Assembly (NCBI GenBank): GCA_043748495.1
Contig: JAYTNB010000050.1
Coordinates: 1 to 58,850, forward strand
Length of the DNA stretch: 58,850 nt
Source of the DNA: a bacterium
GTDB taxonomy: Bacteria; Patescibacteriota; Minisyncoccia; Phycocordibacterales; UBA9973
Reading direction: 5' to 3'
Position numbers and translations under genes: made by a program. Of this stretch, positions 2,476 through 35,074 are shown in pieces; the stretch's first letter is position 1; the number at the start of each line of letters is the position of its first letter. Under the pieces are notes generated by a model. That model made no database searches. It saw only the letters and a program-made list of their open reading frames with translations, and had not been told where the DNA came from.

Positions 2476-3549
2476 CTATGTACTATTGCAAGTACTTGTA
2501 CGCGTCCACCACATATGGCACTCATCGGTTGGTAATGTACTCACAATATACCTTAAAGGAGAAACCATGCCAAGAGATTCATGTGGTCTCTTTGTATCAT
2601 ACCAAAGTAACCAATCCATTAAGTCTTTGTTAAAAGTATTAAGATCTTCTTTTAAAGAATATAGATTCCAGTTAACATACTGTTCTTGTATTGTTCTGTT
2701 AAATCTCTCTACGTAGGCATTCATTTTAGGACATCTAGGATAATTATGAAAATGAACAATCTTTTCTTCTTCTAAATATTCTCTAAAGTACTTTTCAAAT
2801 TCAAGTCCATTGTCTGTTTGGATATGAGTAATTTCAAATGGAGCAACATCTCTTAATTTCTTTAAGAAGTCACGACCTACTTCTGATGAGAGATTTTTGT
2901 ATCCATATGCAAAAGCAAAATCACTTTCAACATCAATTGCTGTCATTATGAATCTTCTGACACCATTAATGAATTTAACTACAGTATCAACTTGGACTAG
3001 ATCACCTGATTTCTCTGGATTGTAGTCTTTACGTCTTAATTTCTTACGTTTCTTGACTATCCTCTCTTTCACATTACCTGTACGAGCATACATCGATACT
3101 TTGTTGTAACTAGGTAGTAAATTACGATTCTTTAGATCTTTTAGAATACGACCGATTTTTGATTCTGAATACGATATATTTAAGTCTTCTTTTAGTAAGC
3201 AAGCTAATTTCTTTTTACCAATTTTGTAGTGAAGTTTCCTTTGTTTAATGATGTATTCAATAGCTTCTAAATTAACATCTCTCTTTCTTTTGTTCTTGGG
3301 AGTTGCACTTGTTGCATTAAGACCTTCTAACTTACCATGTGTACTCTTGAGTGCCTTTTGCCAACGAAATAGAGTACGTTCCGATACTTTAAAAGCTTCC
3401 TTTGTTGCACAACTACCATGACGCTCCCAGAATGCTAAAATACGACATCTTTCTTTTGCTTGTTCTGTAATCATATACCGAAACCTTAGCATATTCTCCC
3501 ACATTGTAATGAACCCTTTTGTACCCTTGAAACGATTGAATTGGCGCAT
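2476..3549 (-). CDS. DDE (rve/integrase-core) transposase, IS481-like
   Basis: Single 357-aa ORF with an N-terminal HTH region. Catalytic triad contexts are LVQVDTV, IQTDNGLEF and NAYVERFNRTIQ, and the C-terminus has KRPHESLG. Confidence 0.85.
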   Translation of the reverse strand: MRQFNRFKGTKGFITMWENMLRFRYMITEQAKERCRILAFWERHGSCATKEAFKVSERTLFRWQKALKSTHGKLEGLNATSATPKNKRKRDVNLEAIEYIIKQRKLHYKIGKKKLACLLKEDLNISYSESKIGRILKDLKNRNLLPSYNKVSMYARTGNVKERIVKKRKKLRRKDYNPEKSGDLVQVDTVVKFINGVRRFIMTAIDVESDFAFAYGYKNLSSEVGRDFLKKLRDVAPFEITHIQTDNGLEFEKYFREYLEEEKIVHFHNYPRCPKMNAYVERFNRTIQEQYVNWNLYSLKEDLNTFNKDLMDWLLWYDTKRPHESLGMVSPLRYIVSTLPTDECHMWWTRTSTCNST

Positions 3550-3599
3550 GTTCTTAATTAATTAAGACTGCCATATGTTAGTGAACTTTAACAGTACTT
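2490..3599 (-). mobile_element. IS481-family insertion sequence (boundaries tentative)
   Basis: Imperfect 31-bp terminal inverted repeats: 2490-2520 AAGTACTTGTACGCGTCCACCACATATGGCA versus the reverse complement of 3569-3599, AAGTACTGTTAAAGTTCACTAACATATGGCA. They match at 21/31 positions, with the outer 7 and inner 10 nt identical. The transposase ORF reads through the 2490 end and stops 14 nt outside. No target duplication was recognised. Confidence 0.45.
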
Positions 3600-3654
3600 C
3601 CTCACAAGTGCATCAAAGAGTACAAAGGAAAAAAGACGATGAGGAGAGAGATTT

Positions 3655-3683
3655 GGTCCGCAAGCTTTGAGAGCTTGCGGACC
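3655..3683. other. perfect 12-bp GC-rich hairpin just outside the IS end
   Basis: GGTCCGCAAGCT-ttgag-AGCTTGCGGACC. A second perfect 12-bp hairpin, GAAGAAATATTT-ttc-AAATATTTCTTC, sits at 3727-3753. Neither is followed by a U-run. Confidence 0.6.
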
Positions 3684-3837
3684 GACACCACCTCTTATCC
3701 TATATTGTTTTCTTTGCTGCACGTGTGAAGAAATATTTTTCAAATATTTCTTCGTTCCTATAGACCCTCAAGCCAATGTCGTAACTTGAGAATCTAATAA
3801 GAAAGAAAAGGTTTGAAATCATCGCCCCTTTTCTTTT

Positions 3838-4101
3838 TTAATTTTCGTTTACAATCTGCCATCCCCAATGACCTTTTGGTACGAGCATTTTAATCTCGAT
3901 ACCATCAGGCATAGTGACAAATATTTCTCCATCACCGTTTGGAAGCTCTCTAAACTGTTCTCCGGGAATATCTTCCTTATTAACTCTCTCAAGTTTAGTT
4001 TGTTTTTTCCATTCCTTAACGCCAACTGGGCAAAACGCAAGCCATTTTTTATAGGCTTCCATTGTAAAAGAAATTTTTTCTAAATCGTGAACCTTCCCCA
4101 T
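3838..4101 (-). CDS. hypothetical small protein (87 aa from ATG 4101; the ORF track starts at TTG 4125)
   Basis: Open frame only; no motif recognised. A hairpin GAAAAGG/CCTTTTC (3805-3833) lies downstream on the minus strand. Confidence 0.4.
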   Translation of the reverse strand: MGKVHDLEKISFTMEAYKKWLAFCPVGVKEWKKQTKLERVNKEDIPGEQFRELPNGDGEIFVTMPDGIEIKMLVPKGHWGWQIVNEN

Positions 4102-4130
4102 TTTATATTTTATTTTAATGTACAAATTAA

Positions 4131-4174
4131 TTCTTACTGAGCCTGCTATAAAAATATAGTAACCTCAGCAAGAA
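4131..4174. other. long hairpin at the low-coordinate end of the 0.9-kb ORF-free stretch; possible minus-strand terminator
   Basis: TTCTTACTGAG...CTCAGCAAGAA pairs at 10/11 positions, with an inner stem CTATA/TATAG. On the minus strand it is followed by TTAATTTGT. Confidence 0.4.
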
Positions 4175-5024
4175 TGGCAAAAATTAATTTACCACTCCTG
4201 CCTCTCTCCTTTTTTAATAAAAGGATAAACAATATTCCCTATAGGCTCACAAGCAATGTCAAAAACTTGTGAGTCTAACAAGGATGCTGAAATTAAAAAC
4301 TTCAGCAAAATTGTTCGGAAACCCTAACCCCGAAAAAAATTTGATTCTTCCACAAACTTACTTTCTCTTATAAAGAGATCTTTTTTGATTAAACAAAAAA
4401 GATATACACTAGGTCGCAGAACCTTACCCGTGTAAATTCGACACTTGTCTTGGGGTATCGATCCCTATTCCAGTAGCTTACAAGAGACTCACTCTGCCGA
4501 AATCTCTATTACAGTGACCACCATAACATGCTGTATGTATGCTTAGAATACGTGGTGATATTCACCTCTTTTAGGATAACTTTTGACAGTATGCCTCTAA
4601 TCAAACGGCCTCCTGGCCAGTAAATATTAACACCAGACGAATCATTCCTGGTGCGAACAGTGTAATTTTTTTATGTTGATTTTTACTACAACAGTAAGTG
4701 TGGTTCTATATTATCCGAGCTGTATCTCCTTCGGAATTAAACCTAAGTTTTTTTATTGCCAGTACTTTACACTAAACTGGTTTTTGCTTGTCGTTGCAAA
4801 ACGTCTCAATCACAGAGATGTGACAACTACTTAATACGTTCTATTCCGTATAGTTGTTTGCAGTTTATGTTGGATACTAATAGAAGTATTTTAATGAGTC
4901 ACACCGCCCATCCTCGGCTTTATATACTAAAAGGAGGATCTTTGTTCATGATCTCTAATTTTTAGTTGTTTTTCTTTCGGAAATATTCCAGGGCGTATAA
5001 CATTCTTCCCATTATCAATAATTT

Positions 5025-6377
5025 TTATAGATTATTGATACCGACACCGCCGGTTGCTTTTGCAACTTCGCAAAGAGCATTGTTGGTAGTGTCTACAACA
5101 AAGGCATGCATCTTAGTACCTGCAAAATCTTTTGTTGCTTTTAAGTCAATTTTATCATCACCATCAGTGATAATTACAAGTTCTGGCTTGTAAGTCGCAC
5201 CATCAGCGATGATTTCATTGATTCTTTCCTGAGCTGACCTTGCACAGCCCGAGATGTCCGTGCTTCCGCCCGAATAATTTTTCTCGGTAAAATGCTTGAT
5301 TAACTCTTTCGCTTCAGTTGGCGTACCCGCATGGTACTCAGTTTTTAGCGATGTGTCGAAAAGCCGGACGTACAATTCCGCTTCTCCAGCAATTACTGCC
5401 TTTAAGCGGTTCATCAGAATCCCCCCAGCTTTGAAGATCCTTTTTCCCTCTCCCATAGAGCCAGAGCAGTCTATCATTACATATAGTAACTGCCTTTTTT
5501 CAATGGTTATCACTCGTTCACGGACAGGGATACCTCCGGTAACGGCCAGATAGTCAAAATAACTTTTTGACTGCTGGCGTACTGCCCAATAAGATTTTTC
5601 AATTTTATTGAGCTCTCCCATGTGACGAATAGGTCTTTTACGGATTTCGTCTCCGGCAGGATCCGCTTCCTGCTTTTTCAACTTACGAACTTGCATTTTC
5701 GTAAGTTTATCGAGGTTGCGGCTTATGGAAAGCATGATATCTTTACCATTGAGCATATCCTCGGCAAGGGACATTTTTTGCTGATCGTCATCAGCATTAT
5801 CTTTTCCTGAATCAGAATTCTCGTCAGAATCCGGATCCAAAAGTTCTTTCTCATCTTGAGTAAGGCTTTCCACCTGATCCAAAATTTGATTAACTTTTTT
5901 CCCTGCTTGTTCTGCCTTCTCAGCAAAAATCGGCAAGGATTCTCCACTTCCATCTCCACTACCACCTTCCATATTAGAAAGTAGCTTTAAGCAATTCATC
6001 GCCTGCTCGAGTGGAGTCGAACCAGGCAAACTTCCCACCTCTACAGTCTGCAAAAAATCGCAAACGTTTTGATGGTACTTAACAGCTTTTTCTGTTTCTT
6101 CGGCAAGTTTAGCTGCTTTAGAATTAGTCGAGCCTTTTTTTGTTTGCCAATTTCCACTCCTGTCAGGAGTTGGCCATTTCTCCTCAACATTTTTTTTCAC
6201 CTGTTCTTTATATGCAGATGGCGGCAATATTTTACCACCAGCTGCAATATTTGCGATGTCGGTAGCCAGGTCAGGTGAGAACCTGGACAGGCCGATTTTT
6301 TCTGCCACCTCTCTCATCTCCTCCTTTGACGGAGAAATATAATGCGAGGGTGGTACAGTACGAAATGTTTGTGACAT
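5025..6377 (-). CDS. von Willebrand factor A (vWA) domain protein with acidic linker (CobT/BchD-like architecture)
   Basis: MIDAS-type motif in LLYVMIDCSGSMGEG, then GGSTDI and LVIITDGDD. An acidic low-complexity linker (DPDSDENSDSGKDNADDDQQ) lies N-terminal to the vWA domain. I moved the start to ATG 6377 because AAGGAGG (6387-6393) lies 9 nt upstream; the ORF track starts at 6419. Confidence 0.8.
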   Translation of the reverse strand: MSQTFRTVPPSHYISPSKEEMREVAEKIGLSRFSPDLATDIANIAAGGKILPPSAYKEQVKKNVEEKWPTPDRSGNWQTKKGSTNSKAAKLAEETEKAVKYHQNVCDFLQTVEVGSLPGSTPLEQAMNCLKLLSNMEGGSGDGSGESLPIFAEKAEQAGKKVNQILDQVESLTQDEKELLDPDSDENSDSGKDNADDDQQKMSLAEDMLNGKDIMLSISRNLDKLTKMQVRKLKKQEADPAGDEIRKRPIRHMGELNKIEKSYWAVRQQSKSYFDYLAVTGGIPVRERVITIEKRQLLYVMIDCSGSMGEGKRIFKAGGILMNRLKAVIAGEAELYVRLFDTSLKTEYHAGTPTEAKELIKHFTEKNYSGGSTDISGCARSAQERINEIIADGATYKPELVIITDGDDKIDLKATKDFAGTKMHAFVVDTTNNALCEVAKATGGVGINNL

Positions 6378-6579
6378 ATCGACGACCCTCCTTGGCCGAT
6401 ATTTTAAAACTTTTTGCAATATGCTTGGGTAGTTTTATTTTCCCTATCAAACTTTTACTCTCTCCCTTTGAAAAAGTTAAAAATCTGAATAAGGTTGCCA
6501 AATATTTCTACTTGGCAAAATTATTATGTAACCCATAACCCCTTATTGGAATTTTAAAGAAGATTCCAACTTCTTTGTT

Positions 6580-7653
6580 TTAAACTCTAACAGAATCCAA
6601 AGCACGGGCCTGGCCTGATGTGATCAAGCCAGAAACTGCATCACGCATTTTATTGCGTTTATCAGTCAACCCGTCAGGGACTCGCATTCCTGCGAGTTTA
6701 TCCTGTAAATTACTTAAGCGTTTTACAGCTTGAAGTAATTTTATAGGAGAGGTCTCCTGACTGACCTCACGATTAAGCCCATCAAACTCCTGCTGTGCCA
6801 CTTGCAGGTTTTTTTCCGCTTCAGCGCGTTCCATTGCGCTTTTAAGATCTGCTTCGATTGTCGAAGCTAAACCTTCAAGACCCGGCAGATAGCGGAGATC
6901 TACCAAGTCTTGTTGTCCCACATGATCCGCACCACGCAATTTTGCAGATGTTTGACACACTTGATATGCGTGGACCGCAGTCCTTGGTGAAACAAAGTTA
7001 CCTTCTGCTGTAGCCTTAGCGAGGATTTCCGCCAAAACTGCCTTAAACCCATTCAAGATGGGCCCCCCAAGACGAGGGGCGACTTTTTCAAACAAAGCCT
7101 TGTAAGACTTTGCAGAATAGTCTTTCCATTCCAGATTATACTGAAGTGGAAAACGTTCAATTAAAGCGTGGGCTGCCGGGCCCAATTCACTTATCTCACT
7201 CGGCATCTTATTCGTTAGACAAATTATAACTTCAGTGCGCATTTTAAAACGCTGCGCACCATTCCTCAACTCCCGCGCAGTTAAGGTGTCTTTTAAAGCA
7301 AGTAAAACGCTCGCGGGAGCGTCAAACAATTCTTCGAAAACAGAAACCTTGCTGTTTAGGAAAGAATTTTCGGGAAAGTACTGGAGTACTTTTTCTTCCT
7401 CCAGTTTTTTAAAATCAAGACCCCCAAACAGTCTTGATTCATCCATTCCTTCTCCAAAGAATTGGAAGAAAGTTTCGGACTCCAGTCCGAGGCCATTGAC
7501 GATGGCCTGGATCATTTCGGATTTAGCATGACCGCCAGGCCCAAAAATGATCACATTTTTGTTTCCGCCCATTCCGAGCGAAAGAATTCTACTCACCTCA
7601 TCGGTAAACACGAATCCTTCCTCAAGGATGGACGGGATTTTTGTTACGTCCAT
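6580..7653 (-). CDS. single-module AAA+ ATPase, MoxR/CobS/NorQ-like
   Basis: Walker A-like GPGGHAKS (residues 38-45, non-canonical Ala in place of the second Gly). Walker B-like VSVFEE. The ~350-aa size and the adjacent vWA gene fit MoxR-vWA or CobS-CobT type pairs. Confidence 0.7.
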   Translation of the reverse strand: MDVTKIPSILEEGFVFTDEVSRILSLGMGGNKNVIIFGPGGHAKSEMIQAIVNGLGLESETFFQFFGEGMDESRLFGGLDFKKLEEEKVLQYFPENSFLNSKVSVFEELFDAPASVLLALKDTLTARELRNGAQRFKMRTEVIICLTNKMPSEISELGPAAHALIERFPLQYNLEWKDYSAKSYKALFEKVAPRLGGPILNGFKAVLAEILAKATAEGNFVSPRTAVHAYQVCQTSAKLRGADHVGQQDLVDLRYLPGLEGLASTIEADLKSAMERAEAEKNLQVAQQEFDGLNREVSQETSPIKLLQAVKRLSNLQDKLAGMRVPDGLTDKRNKMRDAVSGLITSGQARALDSVRV

Positions 7654-7853
7654 TTTTCTTAATCCCTTTCTTATGGGGAGTTTAAGATGTGACTTGAGCT
7701 GTTCTCCATTCCGATTATTGAAACTTCGACACTTGCGTCACCCCGCGATCTTATTGGTGCGGATCACCACGAGCGAGAATTAAATTATTCTCGCTCAGTT
7801 TGTTATCCTACTTGTTTATTTGAATTCCCCGTTCAGATCTAGGAATTTTAAAA

Positions 7854-8330
7854 TCACCAAGGGCACCGAGTTGTCTCAGTGCCAGTTATGATTTCTTCTT
7901 TCCCCCACACTAAAGCGTGAGAGTTCCAGAAATCATAACTTTTTTTGGTAGCATTTCTGTCCCAAGGTTCGGGCTCTGCCATGCTACCAACAAAGGCGGT
8001 GATTAAAATAAAAACGTTGGCATCCTCCGCCTTCTTGAGGATGACAACTACGCTTTGACAAGGTTCAGCTTGCCTGTCTTTGACAAACCTCGTCAAGCCA
8101 AAGCGTTTAGGCCTTTTTGCATACACAACTGTATCGCTCGGCCTAGTCGCGACACAAATTGTCTCACCGATGATTCGACCCATATCGATCTCCTCAACGA
8201 TGAAATTTCTCCCTTTTGCTTCTATACTTAGTAAAGCCTCTGGAAGAAGAGAGACTATGCCATTGTGAAGGTGTGAGTTTGGTCTATCTCTCACTTCTTC
8301 ACCAGAAGCAATCCTTAAAATATTTTCCAT
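7854..8330 (-). CDS. hypothetical protein (158 aa), first gene of the AAA+/vWA island
   Basis: Open frame with GC-richer composition like the two downstream genes. No motif recognised. Ends with TGA. Confidence 0.5.
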   Translation of the reverse strand: MENILRIASGEEVRDRPNSHLHNGIVSLLPEALLSIEAKGRNFIVEEIDMGRIIGETICVATRPSDTVVYAKRPKRFGLTRFVKDRQAEPCQSVVVILKKAEDANVFILITAFVGSMAEPEPWDRNATKKSYDFWNSHALVWGKEEIITGTETTRCPW

Positions 8331-8917
8331 ATTTTTTGAATTAAAGTTTTGCTTTCGTGTAACGTCCTACGGCATCTACGTTAATTTATCATTAATAGCC
8401 ACCCGTATAAAACGGGCAGTATTAATGCTAAATTAAAAAAGTTTTCAAATAACTTGTCTTACCATAAATCAGGCCTCTCTCCTATTTATGCTCCATAGAT
8501 ACACTCTCCTATGCTATCTGTGGTTCCTTCGTAAAGACATTTCTAGATACAACAATGGGTTAGGTCGTTATATCCAGTCGATTTCATTACGAAACGTTTG
8601 TGAGGTTGTGGTCTCCTTTATATGTTTTGCGGCATATATTGGATTCCTCTCACGGTGCAAAAAAGAATTTATGTAATGTTTATAGAATACTCTCTCTTCT
8701 TTCCTAACTTACCGGCCTAGGTGCCGTCTTGCATTTATAGAATCAAACACAAGATCAGAGGTAAACATCATTATCATATATCTCCTTTAAAGAACTCTCT
8801 CCTTAACTTCTTGCACATAGTATAGCAGAAATAGCACACTTTGTCAATAAGCTATATACAAAAATGCCGTACGTGCTATAAATTTATTATAAAATAAGGG
8901 TTTATTAGTTATCCACA

Positions 8918-8937
8918 TTGTCACATTTGTGTGACAA
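8918..8937. promoter_or_regulatory. perfect palindrome TTGTCACA-tttg-TGTGACAA upstream of the TrmB-like regulator (candidate operator)
   Basis: 8-bp inverted repeat read directly from the sequence. TACAAT at 8950-8955 lies 6 nt before the ATG at 8962. Confidence 0.45.
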
Positions 8938-8961
8938 AAGTAGATATGCTACAATAAAAGC

Positions 8962-18813: not shown

Positions 18814-18876
18814 AAAAACACCTAGATCACAGATCTAAGTGTTTAAACATGTGCCAAAATCTAGAAACCAAAATCG

Positions 18877-18956
18877 TCGGAGTACTTGGATTCGAACCAG
18901 AGATCTTGTTTTACGTAAAACGCAAAAACACGTAATACCAGCTATACCATACCCCG
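18877..18956 (-). tRNA. aberrant 80-nt tRNA-like gene, tRNA-Lys(UUU)-like with an elongated anticodon arm
   Basis: Acceptor CGGGGTA/TACTCCG (one G:U), D-arm GTA(T)-AGCTGGTA-(T)TAC, 5-nt variable loop and T-arm TCTGG-TTCGAAT-CCAAG (one C:A mismatch). The anticodon arm is 24 nt (TGTTTTTGC-GTTTTAC-GTAAAACA) instead of 17. Confidence 0.5.
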
Positions 18957-33793: not shown

Positions 33794-35074
33794 ATGAAAA
33801 AAATCTTTTTGGGTGGTCTAGTGATCACCATTGTCTCATTATTGATATCAGTAATCGGCTTGAAAACAGCTGGCTATAATGATATCAAAATCCCTCAGAG
33901 AGTCTGGGTGGATGGTAGTTTTGAACCGTTAGGCATTTTGACTCCACTACAGGTGGAAGGCACAAAAAGCCAAACTAACAGCGATAGCATAGTTGTTACC
34001 CAAAGTTATGTTTGGGGTCAAGGTTTTAAAACAGTAGCCATGCAGTATGGCGAAGCGAAAAAAACAGCCGAGTGGGCTGACTCATTAGCTGAGGGGCTAG
34101 GAGCAAAAAGGAGTTCGATAGACTATTTCTACGGGGAGTCAAGGTTGGCTAAAGCGGCCCACGGGAATGATTTAGAAGAGCTTTTAGCTGGCAAGACTTT
34201 CACTAAAATGGAAGTAGTTGGCTACGCTTCTCCAGAAGCGGGAACTGCTTCATCGCTTTTAAAAGGAGCGGTAGATGCGAAGAATATCGATCTTGCGGAA
34301 GCAAGAGCCAAGATGACAGAAACAATGATCAAAGATTTGTTTTTGATAAATGGTAATGATGTTTCAGGCATCAAAAGCACTACAAAAGGTGAGGAGCTTC
34401 AGTTGCCACTTGCGATGGCGGATGGTCTTGCAACAAAAGCAGGGTTTGAGGCGGTGAAAGCTTCGAACAGATCAGGAAAAGACACTTTGGGCTTCAACGC
34501 TCACAGTGAATTGTCTAAATTGCGTTTTACTTCTGTGAAATTAAATTACACAGATAAAACACAAAAGACAATGGTTGTAACTCAACCATTTTTACTGCCA
34601 CTGCTTTTGTTGTGGTTGTTATGGAATCTTTTAAAAAGGATTCCGAGAATTGGAACTCCGAACCTTAAAACTCCTTCGTTACCACGTTGGAGATGTAGAA
34701 TGCCAAGAATTTCTTGTGGACCTTGGTCATGGCCAAATTGTGGAACTTGGAACTGTAATTTTAATTGGTGTAAATGGCCATCATGTGGTTCATTACCAAA
34801 TTTTAAATGCAGTCCATGTGACTGGTCTTGGTTGTGCTTCCCGTGCTTTAATTGCACGTGCACACCACCGCCACCACAAGAGGATGGGCCATGTTGTTGC
34901 TATCGAAAAATGCGTAATGGCAAAAGACGATGGCGACTATGGGTCTGTGTAGCACGCTTCTTTGGAAGACCATTTGTATTGTGGCTACGGCAACGATGCA
35001 TCTGCTGTCTTTGGAAAGTGCTGCTACTACTAAGTGCAGCACTGAACATCTGGTTCTACATGAACCGATGTTAA
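33794..35074 (+). CDS. membrane protein with an OmpA-like peptidoglycan-binding motif; the C-terminal ~170 codons are doubtful (frame problem)
   Basis: N-terminal TM helix, then VVGYASPEAGT...NIDLAEARAK (OmpA/MotB-type motif) and a hydrophobic segment. A tail of about 128 residues follows with 20 Cys and 13 Trp. See the finding. Confidence 0.5.
   Translation: MKKIFLGGLVITIVSLLISVIGLKTAGYNDIKIPQRVWVDGSFEPLGILTPLQVEGTKSQTNSDSIVVTQSYVWGQGFKTVAMQYGEAKKTAEWADSLAEGLGAKRSSIDYFYGESRLAKAAHGNDLEELLAGKTFTKMEVVGYASPEAGTASSLLKGAVDAKNIDLAEARAKMTETMIKDLFLINGNDVSGIKSTTKGEELQLPLAMADGLATKAGFEAVKASNRSGKDTLGFNAHSELSKLRFTSVKLNYTDKTQKTMVVTQPFLLPLLLLWLLWNLLKRIPRIGTPNLKTPSLPRWRCRMPRISCGPWSWPNCGTWNCNFNWCKWPSCGSLPNFKCSPCDWSWLCFPCFNCTCTPPPPQEDGPCCCYRKMRNGKRRWRLWVCVARFFGRPFVLWLRQRCICCLWKVLLLLSAALNIWFYMNRC

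Follow-up and report, generated by a model that had tools for sequence, protein, structure and literature searches.

Several characterised systems pair a MoxR-type ATPase with a protein carrying a von Willebrand factor A (vWA) domain. In RavA–ViaA, NorQ–NorD, CbbQ–CbbO and CoxD–CoxE, a single-module AAA+ ATPase of the MoxR clade with intact motifs is encoded next to, and in the same orientation as, a partner with a C-terminal vWA domain and a complete metal-ion-dependent adhesion site (MIDAS). MoxR–vWA pairs have also been reported in jumbo phages and an archaeal virus, where they are proposed to act as assembly chaperones (PMC7824862), and in vWA–MoxR ternary conflict systems, where the third component is a VMAP, iSTAND, FtsH or beta-propeller protein, the effectors are variable and the architecture is diversifying (Kaur, Burroughs, Iyer and Aravind 2020, PMC7159879). 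Here we describe a locus with the same basic layout on a 58,850-nt stretch of patescibacterial DNA (GTDB order Phycocordibacterales; contig JAYTNB010000050.1 of assembly GCA_043748495.1), the whole of which is referred to below as the window. Positions 4744–8961, together with the neighbouring TrmB-like gene, are on sequence evidence the local copy of a cassette conserved in Patescibacteria (also termed candidate phyla radiation, or CPR), whose predicted elements follow a set order: a divergent TrmB-like regulator, an operator-like palindrome, a strong sigma-70 promoter, a long structured leader, the gene for a 158-residue protein (p158), a structured RNA (motif B), the ATPase gene and the gene for the vWA/MIDAS protein.

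The cassette resembles the characterised pairs in the build and arrangement of its ATPase and vWA genes, with RavA as the nearest solved ATPase and NorD among the fold matches of the vWA protein. In contrast to those pairs, it has a dedicated third gene, structured RNAs and a TrmB-type regulator, and its surroundings encode no client enzyme. Only Patescibacteria-type contigs were seen to carry the cassette itself, with more distant relatives of the ATPase–vWA pair on viral contigs. We consider it somewhat more probable than its negation that the cassette specifies a MoxR–vWA remodelling machine regulated by TrmB and by RNA, with p158 as a new third subunit. The evidence base is comparative and derived from metagenomes: 154 related loci were collected and the window proteins were mapped onto each, a metagenome scan with an alignment as query being far more productive than a scan of genome collections with one protein as query, which gave 7 loci. 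The locus is a Patescibacteria-wide MoxR–vWA operon with a partner that has no known fold and with RNA motifs outside Rfam; the full-text literature searches made found no description of the cassette or its RNAs, which is not proof of absence.

The ATPase, the vWA protein and p158

The ATPase gene (6580–7653, minus strand) encodes a single AAA+ module with a helical C-terminal extension. Its product matches PF20030 (bpMoxR; E = 8.6e-17, 61.3 bits against a cut-off of 27) and PF07728 (AAA_5; 32.6 bits against a cut-off of 22), and a complete set of catalytic motifs is invariant in a 25-sequence alignment, comprising Walker A (G38, P39, G41, H42, K44 and S45), an EE Walker B (E107 and E108), a TN sensor 1 (T147 and N148), an ERF motif (E166, R167 and F168) and an SPR sensor 2 (S222, P223 and R224). 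The Pfam matches above cut-off and the full motif set identify the protein as a MoxR-type ATPase, in agreement with an earlier note on this DNA, which had assigned the AAA+ and vWA proteins from the letters alone. That note regarded the GPGGHAKS P-loop as an oddity, but among the 120 closest relatives no other Walker A form is as common (43/120, against 34 with GPAGHGKS and 28 with GPGGHGKS), and the residue preceding the Walker A lysine is A or G across the family. In total, 850 ATPase relatives were found, and the full-length sequences among the best 120 are 54–89% identical, with labels that include Paceibacterota, Moran-, Kaiser-, Uhr-, Nomura- and Saccharibacteria and CPR2. The window, a low-GC, Patescibacteria-type contig, shares an identical ATPase with an 84-kb ENA metagenome scaffold, while in the related locus L004 the ATPase is 82% identical and the adjacent ClpP 68%. 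For the ATPase and the vWA protein alike, all characterised subfamilies are distant, as RavA, the nearest solved structure, is matched at only E = 9e-6 and NCBIfam scores fall far under their cut-offs.

The vWA protein (5025–6377, minus strand) is composed of a helical N-terminal region, an acidic linker modelled with low confidence and a C-terminal vWA domain with a complete MIDAS, the residues of which (D303-x-S305-x-S307, T373 and D405) are invariant in 33 sequences. An AlphaFold2 model was obtained with a pLDDT of 85; the C-terminal 170 residues match vWA folds (Foldseek probability 1.0) and, more loosely, NorD, and the helical N-terminal half has no fold match. The window protein itself scores under the Pfam VWA_2 cut-off (19.9 against 27 bits). 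Its relatives are uniformly 430–480 aa long and 46–87% identical, and carry PF13519 and PF05762 (VWA_CoxE) domains. With its DxSxS...T...D site and vWA fold, the protein has the features that define vWA/MIDAS proteins, as the earlier note had proposed.

A single-module AAA+ followed by a protein with an acidic linker and a C-terminal vWA domain is also the layout of chelatase-type pairs (CobS/CobT, BchI/BchD, and NorQ/NorD- or CoxD/CoxE-like), and the cassette could on this basis equip a client enzyme with a metal or cofactor, with the leader RNAs sensing that metal or cofactor. The VWA_CoxE domain in the relatives, NorD among the fold matches and a weak match to the cobaltochelatase model TIGR02442 are all consistent with such a role, and metal- and cofactor-sensing riboswitches exist as a precedent. 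However, the scores are far from equivalog level (21 against 779 bits for TIGR02442 and 26 against 681 bits for RavA), which places the pair outside the CobS/CobT, BchI/BchD and RavA–ViaA families, and the flanks in the window and the related loci examined contain no cobalamin, chlorophyll, nitric-oxide-reductase or CO-dehydrogenase gene. In addition, no match to a known metal or cofactor riboswitch model was found, and to our knowledge Patescibacteria lack most pathways of these four types. A chelatase-type function is therefore quite improbable.

The third protein, p158 (7854–8330, minus strand; 158 aa), is rich in arginine and histidine and has a fold without a known match. It had been taken for an orphan, but 180 close relatives were found among Patescibacteria-type sequences and 1274 representatives at E up to 1e-3, and it matches phrog_23674 at 7.7e-23, with 20 phage records. 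Searches of Pfam, NCBIfam and PADLOC gave no match to p158, and a search of PDB and BFVD with Foldseek gave none to its fold (best E 0.07–0.09; AlphaFold2 model with a pLDDT of 94). The invariant residues of the family include R16, H20, H22, D66, R73, R76, R81, R86, E121 and D124, a set dominated by arginines together with a pair of histidines and three acidic positions. Dozens of Patescibacteria-type contigs show the order p158–ATPase–vWA, at ATPase identities of 44–91%; among the 56 loci with enough upstream sequence, p158 lies directly upstream of the ATPase in 41 and downstream of it in 4. The cassette proteins are under very strong purifying selection.

The phage homologues of p158 are hypothetical proteins of Rak2-like jumbo phages (34–43% identity) and of two Pseudomonas phages. 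For example, in Pseudomonas phage Milchi (L155, 4941–5396) the homologue lies in a tRNA-gene region beside an RNase H-like gene, and in Pectobacterium phage CBB (L156, 4944–5417) it lies in a tRNA-gene region beside an ATP-grasp gene and an AAA gene. The AAA protein of phage CBB was considered as a relative of the cassette ATPase and ruled out (E = 0.11). Two rare fusions of p158 were also identified (P0396 and P0376), one with two HxT/S motifs (2H-phosphoesterase-like) and the other with a P-loop and a Csx3-like segment, both domain matches being slightly under the Pfam cut-offs. The phage tRNA neighbourhoods and the fusions are weak leads towards an RNA or ribonucleoprotein client.

Membership of p158 in a PHROG family, the occurrence of MoxR–vWA pairs in jumbo phages and an archaeal virus (PMC7824862) and the viral contigs that carry relatives would also suit a phage-derived assembly chaperone, whether domesticated or part of a resident prophage, that serves virion or tail assembly. 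We give this explanation a very slim chance, since no structural, terminase or integrase genes were found in the window flanks or the related loci examined, the chromosomal locus is conserved, and p158 adjoins the viral ATPase–vWA pair in only 1 of 59 viral loci.

Covarying RNA structures and the promoter region

The region between the transposase end and the TrmB-like gene has long gaps between its genes. The earlier note listed four ORFs, all on the minus strand, at coordinates that match the ORF list, and gaps of 238, 899, 202, 200 and 631 nt, which indeed sum to ~2.2 of 5.4 kb, so that about 40% of the region is non-coding. The spacers were searched one by one with iterated nhmmer against the related loci, and their nucleotide conservation extends to loci whose proteins are only about 50% identical.

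Motif B (7676–7797, minus strand; 122 nt) is a structured RNA 5' of the ATPase gene. It comprises a P0 hairpin with a perfect 10-bp stem (7796–7771), an H-type pseudoknot in which GGU/ACC (7768–7766 with 7758–7756) is interleaved with UCCGC/GCGGG (7763–7759 with 7746–7742) and the third loop is A-rich, and three further helices. The 10-bp stem had previously been noted as a strong hairpin in its own right; it is genuine, but it is the first helix of this conserved 122-nt motif and not an isolated feature. When 38 sequences were aligned with MAFFT, without fitting to the structure, pairing is found in 79.4% of cells, compared with 36–45% for slid partners, and the covariation score reaches 0.427 against 0.12–0.145. 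In a larger, model-fitted alignment, which is biased towards its own structure, 85% are paired against 41–47%, with double changes in 24 of 28 pairs. A covariance model of the motif (R1) gave 57 matches in 88 sequences, at most one in each, all of them directly 5' of the ATPase gene and on the same strand, and 13 of the matched loci were outside the set from which the model was built. No match to R1 was found in the 59 viral loci. The 899-nt spacer after the vWA gene was considered as the site of a second motif B, but R1 finds only one copy in the window.

The ribosome-binding site lies a median of 10 nt past the conserved GCUCAA of motif B. In the subclade of the window, a small variable hairpin stands between motif B and the start codon, and is terminator-like in some loci and encloses the ribosome-binding site in others. 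A structure supported by covariation and a fixed position in the 5' untranslated region (UTR) at the ribosome-binding site together mark motif B as a candidate structured cis-regulatory RNA. In this respect it resembles preQ1 and SAM-II riboswitches and ribosomal-protein leaders, which are likewise compact 5'-UTR elements with H-type pseudoknots, an A-rich third loop and covarying helices, and the resemblance extends to the 3' end beside the ribosome-binding site and to a downstream platform that varies by lineage. In contrast to these elements, motif B has no Rfam match, and the genes downstream encode a remodelling ATPase rather than functions in metabolism or transport. At gathering thresholds, tRNAs alone match Rfam 15 in the window, and at E up to 5 the region 3400–9100 gave two chance-level matches only, neither of them credible.

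The second structured element, Leader A (8470–8812, minus strand), is a conserved stretch of ~340 nt, predicted to be a non-coding transcript or 5' UTR, with GGAGAGAG boxes at either end; its start at ~8812 is predicted from the position of the promoter. Iterated nhmmer gave 32 matches to it in about 30 loci, with ATPase identities as low as 43%. It contains no minus-strand ORF of at least 40 aa and has no match in Rfam at E up to 5. Within it lies a 71-nt hairpin (8526–8596, minus strand) whose 19 bp fall into three segments; its internal loops CGG and GAA are conserved, and it has a CUAACC loop. In a plain MAFFT alignment of 25 distinct sequences, not fitted to structure, 94.1% of cells are paired against 39–54% with slid partners, 105 cells are compensatory against 10–28 in the slid controls, and double changes occur in 15 of 19 pairs. 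For motif B as well as for this hairpin, the observed values lie above every slid control and all 500 shuffles (0/500 attaining them in the case of the hairpin). The covariance model of the hairpin (R2) gave 30 matches in ~27 loci, 29 of them on the operon strand, the exception being weak. Similarly, G-U cells outnumber A-C cells (37 against 12), which favours the operon strand. The comparative evidence shows the leader hairpin and motif B to be real RNA structures on the operon strand. A further candidate pseudoknot in the leader, near 8726–8700, is tentative, with 5–8 of 9 sequences paired per position in a hand count from the nhmmer alignment. The 899-nt post-vWA spacer was also considered as a paralogue of Leader A, but the leader profile matched nothing there.

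Upstream of the leader, the best sigma-70-type promoter in the region (8819–8847, minus strand; TTGACA-17 nt-TG-n-TATACT, with an extended -10 and 11/12 matches) faces the operon, and none of the 10 full-length leaders that were aligned departs from its -35 TTGACA. The same 10 leaders retain recognisable half-sites, some with one or two substitutions, of an operator-like palindrome, TGTCA-N8-TGACA (8919–8936), which lies 26–43 nt upstream of the start codon of the TrmB-like gene. This gene (8962–9741, plus strand) diverges from the operon and encodes a winged-helix regulator of the TrmB family (Pfam TrmB, 2e-12). We infer that the TrmB-like protein is a likely repressor of both the operon and itself, acting via the palindrome. 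An imperfect second copy of the palindrome is present at 4826–4810, downstream of the vWA gene in a block that the close subclade conserves; it may serve as another operator.

The remaining spacers are conserved over shorter phylogenetic distances or in fewer lineages. Spacer C, between the ATPase and vWA genes (6378–6579, minus strand), contains a hairpin (6518–6495) with a U-rich tract after it, which together look like a terminator or attenuator, a GGAGAGAG box (6465–6458) and a strong vWA ribosome-binding site, AAGGAGGG. It is conserved solely in the closest subclade (L003, L004, L009 and L016), with the hairpin covarying among 5 sequences; in most other loci the two genes are 10–40 nt apart. 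After the vWA gene, a conserved stretch (4744–5013, minus strand) that includes the imperfect palindrome copy matches L016, L003, L009 and L004 by nhmmer (E = 4e-36 to 5e-7), iteration adding L023 (repeat families D17 and I16). A second conserved non-coding element (4381–4501, minus strand) lies ~520–640 nt past the vWA stop and has UUCGACACUUG in common with motif B. It matches five loci of a distant subclade (L030, L031, L041, L044 and L049) in an equivalent place, ~400 nt past their vWA genes. Two compensatory helix changes were seen in this element, yet among only two sequence types; with a folding z-score of +1.05 it folds no better than shuffled sequence, and it is missed by model R1.

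The octamer GGAGAGAG occurs in 6 copies in the window against about 0.93 expected, and 5 of the 6 lie in the spacers of the region (3643–3650 on the plus strand, and 4202–4209, 6458–6465, 8475–8482 and 8795–8802 on the minus strand). Across the related loci, 113 copies are on the operon strand and 38 on the opposite strand, mostly in the leader region and usually with no ORF behind them, and the leaders of these loci contain up to five or more repeats. An explanation of the boxes as ribosome-binding sites of small genes was rejected, as most are followed by no start codon or by unconserved ORFs of 2–20 codons. In some loci, however, the last box doubles as the p158 ribosome-binding site. A leader with several copies of a short purine-rich box, mostly free of ORFs, recalls CsrB and RsmZ. 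The cassette differs from these in that GGAGAGAG is not the GGA motif bound by CsrA, no CsrA-like gene is linked and the last box can serve the translation of p158.

Genomic position, composition and lateral exchange

The earlier note read this GC-richer region as a recently acquired module beside an insertion sequence. The locus is instead shared with relatives, one of the observations by which the note itself would have called the block ordinary. Among 27 related loci with at least 3.5 kb of upstream flank, a divergent TrmB-like gene precedes the cassette in 22 and a GNAT636-like gene lies beyond it in 14, and in the closest relatives a gene for ClpP, trigger factor or a ComF-like protein is found nearby. 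With the same locus and neighbours in relatives, the cassette is not an acquisition specific to the window. The higher GC content, by comparison, is real: 1-kb windows over 5001–8500 have a GC of 0.42–0.44 against ~0.34 for the rest of the window, and the p158, ATPase and vWA genes (5025–8330) rank 1–3 for both GC and GC at third codon positions (GC3) among 40 ORFs of at least 150 aa. The excess of the three genes is only about +2 standard deviations, the ORF at 33794–35074 equals them in GC richness, and ClpP reaches 0.41. Moreover, of 25 related loci, 23 have a cassette with a higher GC content than its flanks, the average difference being 11 points, which makes the excess a property of the family and not of the window.

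The same pattern is seen at third codon positions, where the p158, ATPase and vWA genes have a GC3 up to 0.4 above that of their neighbours in every lineage examined (5025–8330 in the window, and L003–L068). For example, the ATPase gene has a GC3 of 0.82 against 0.39 for the TrmB gene in L029, of 0.79 against 0.40 in L068, and of 0.53 against 0.29 for the ClpP gene in L004. A simple story of a GC-rich donor does not fit, since in none of the hosts seen is the cassette as AT-rich as the flanking DNA. The GC3 excess may stem from repeated homologous exchange combined with GC-biased conversion, or from selection acting on the transcript. Identities are also mosaic: the window ATPase is 88–91% identical to those of L003 and L009, whose TrmB proteins are only 35% identical, whereas L055 has the highest TrmB identity of the three (55%) and the best leader match, with an ATPase identity of only 55%. 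With a composition that is host-like in no lineage and with these mosaic identities, some lateral exchange may have taken place.

Two sets of loci stand apart. In L096, L035 and L080 (an IMG/VR "viral" contig and 56–85-kb metagenome contigs), an ATPase–vWA pair of 60% identity occurs without p158 or motif B, and this pair is the only case of cassette GC equal to that of the flanks. In addition, two contigs with the cassette (L010 and L014) are labelled as bins of Gammaproteobacteria and Methanosarcinales; these are probably mis-binned, because their flanks resemble Patescibacteria.

A module for conflict or defence that moves laterally and arrived recently beside the insertion sequence, close to the view taken in the earlier note, would account for cassette GC and GC3 above the flanks in nearly every lineage, for the mosaic identities of cassette and flanks, and for the adjoining transposase. 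The ATPase matches a Pfam family, PF20030, named after the ternary conflict systems, in which three genes likewise include a MoxR ATPase and a vWA protein; its ATPase–vWA relatives occur at 25–60% identity on 59 IMG/VR contigs, and p158 has phage homologues. In contrast to the ternary systems, however, the third component here is p158 rather than a VMAP, iSTAND, FtsH or beta-propeller protein, and variable effector domains are missing from the vWA protein. Furthermore, none of the four proteins matches PADLOC-DB 2.0 at E up to 0.01, the architecture is uniform and the proteins are unusually conserved, the opposite of diversifying effectors (PMC7159879). The deviating composition of the region is that of a genomic island, but the cassette occupies the same genomic position with the same neighbours across dozens of lineages, the transposase is missing in relatives, motif B is missing in viral loci, and no integrase, att-like repeats or tRNA boundary was seen. 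We therefore consider a mobile conflict module improbable.

The features adjoining the cassette on either side differ in how far they are shared. The neighbouring insertion sequence is confirmed by a DDE transposase gene (2476–3549, minus strand; rve_3 at 4e-14, and HTH_32), a lineage-specific insertion for which a repeat search of the sequence found no convincing terminal inverted repeats. It is a private insertion, as no transposase is present at that position in the closest relative, L003, where the ComF-like gene directly follows the vWA spacer. Between the transposase and a 95-aa ORF, a self-complementary stretch of ~158 nt (3587–3753) holds the two perfect 12-bp stems described earlier (3655–3683 and 3727–3753), both of them genuine; it is conserved in no other locus and may represent either an end of an insertion sequence or a group of terminators. 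The 95-aa ORF itself (3838–4125, minus strand) has no Pfam, PHROG, PADLOC or NCBIfam match and a single homologue among the 154 loci (L016, 45% identity), which lies 3 kb from the vWA gene, apart from the cassette. This ORF, the transposase and the two 12-bp hairpins (3655–3753) are local extras outside the system. Of the earlier proposal that the ATPase–vWA pair works with two small proteins and/or with RNAs from the spacers, p158 as a conserved third gene and two spacers with covarying RNA structures remain, while the 95-aa protein drops out.

On the other side, beyond the TrmB-like gene, a gene for a 636-aa protein with a C-terminal GNAT acetyltransferase domain (9722–11632, minus strand; Acetyltransf_1 at 5e-6) has a host-like composition (GC3 0.23). 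It converges on the TrmB-like gene with a 20-nt overlap (9722–9741), and its GNAT domain is weakly RimI-like. Elsewhere in the window, an 81-nt tRNA-Ala(TGC) at 18876–18956 (minus strand) is called by ARAGORN and not by the Rfam tRNA model, and is either an unusual tRNA or a false call.

A proposed regulated remodelling machine and its possible clients

In the proposed remodelling machine, the palindrome would be the site through which the TrmB-like protein represses the promoter. The leader and motif B would act in cis, either as riboswitches for a small ligand or as sites for one of the operon's own proteins, and binding of the ligand or protein to the RNA would set the output of p158 and of the ATPase–vWA pair. 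The ATPase hexamer and the vWA protein would then form a remodelling pair of the MoxR–vWA kind, in which the MIDAS grips the client, with p158 as a specific adaptor or client-binding subunit.

Several observations weigh against this scheme. The leader and motif B could be separate small RNAs rather than cis elements. The motif B of the window is the lowest but four among the R1 matches (63 bits), its subclade departing from the consensus in two helices. Furthermore, p158 is absent from 11 of the 56 loci, and the loci in which it lies downstream of the ATPase also lack motif B. A plain housekeeping operon does not account for the family-wide GC3 excess and the mosaic identities, the leads from domain fusions of p158 fall under curated thresholds, and most of the sequences are metagenome contigs of uncertain binning, some with implausible taxonomic labels.

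The RNA elements could also play a more direct part than in the proposed remodelling machine, as stable partners or substrates of a ribonucleoprotein machine in which p158 and the vWA protein bind the leader or motif B RNA and the ATPase remodels the particle, other RNAs or ribosomal particles. A MIDAS/vWA protein encoded beside a conserved structured RNA recalls Ro60/Rsr (TROVE and vWA domains) with its Y RNA, a likeness that may serve as a lead and not as a classification, and in Midasin/Rea1 an ATPase of the MoxR/dynein clade is combined with a MIDAS domain in ribosome biogenesis. Conserved RNA elements of several distinct kinds lie around the genes (the leader, motif B and the post-vWA elements), the enrichment of mostly ORF-free GGAGAGAG boxes on the operon strand (113 against 38) is reminiscent of multi-site protein-sponge RNAs, and the invariant surface of p158 is rich in Arg and His. 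The phage homologues of p158 in tRNA islands and its fusions to 2H-like and Csx3-like domains point in the same direction, and the extreme conservation of the proteins suggests a core cellular client. However, no TROVE domain was matched, the region 3400–9100 contains no Y_RNA or tRNA-like match at E up to 5 and no other credible Rfam match, and motif B lies exactly at the ribosome-binding site, which is more simply explained by cis-regulation. The fusion matches are sub-threshold, and RNA binding by p158 and the vWA protein is a prediction from sequence. A ribonucleoprotein machine of this kind is accordingly rather unlikely. In its broadest form, a hitherto undescribed Patescibacteria-wide ribonucleoprotein system, the leader with its GGAGAGAG boxes, motif B and the elements further downstream would all be targets of p158 and the vWA protein, and the ATPase would remodel them in RNA quality control or the maturation of ribosomal particles in these bacteria with reduced genomes; we hold this to be distinctly unlikely. 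If it were true, the GC3 excess would result from selection acting on the transcript or from repeated gene conversion of a module that can be exchanged.

Whether or not the proposed remodelling machine is the correct reading, these results correct the annotation of the locus, which is not a defence island and whose spacers are not junk. The GC3 excess across lineages is a clear compositional puzzle, and the at least two structured RNA elements outside Rfam are candidates for ligand or protein binding. A large part of bacterial diversity is believed to belong to the ultrasmall Patescibacteria, and for most of the conserved genes specific to these lineages no role has been assigned. In this group, the cassette stands out as strongly conserved, with an ATPase more conserved than the neighbouring ClpP and a dedicated partner without a recognisable fold, p158, which is a candidate for structure determination.

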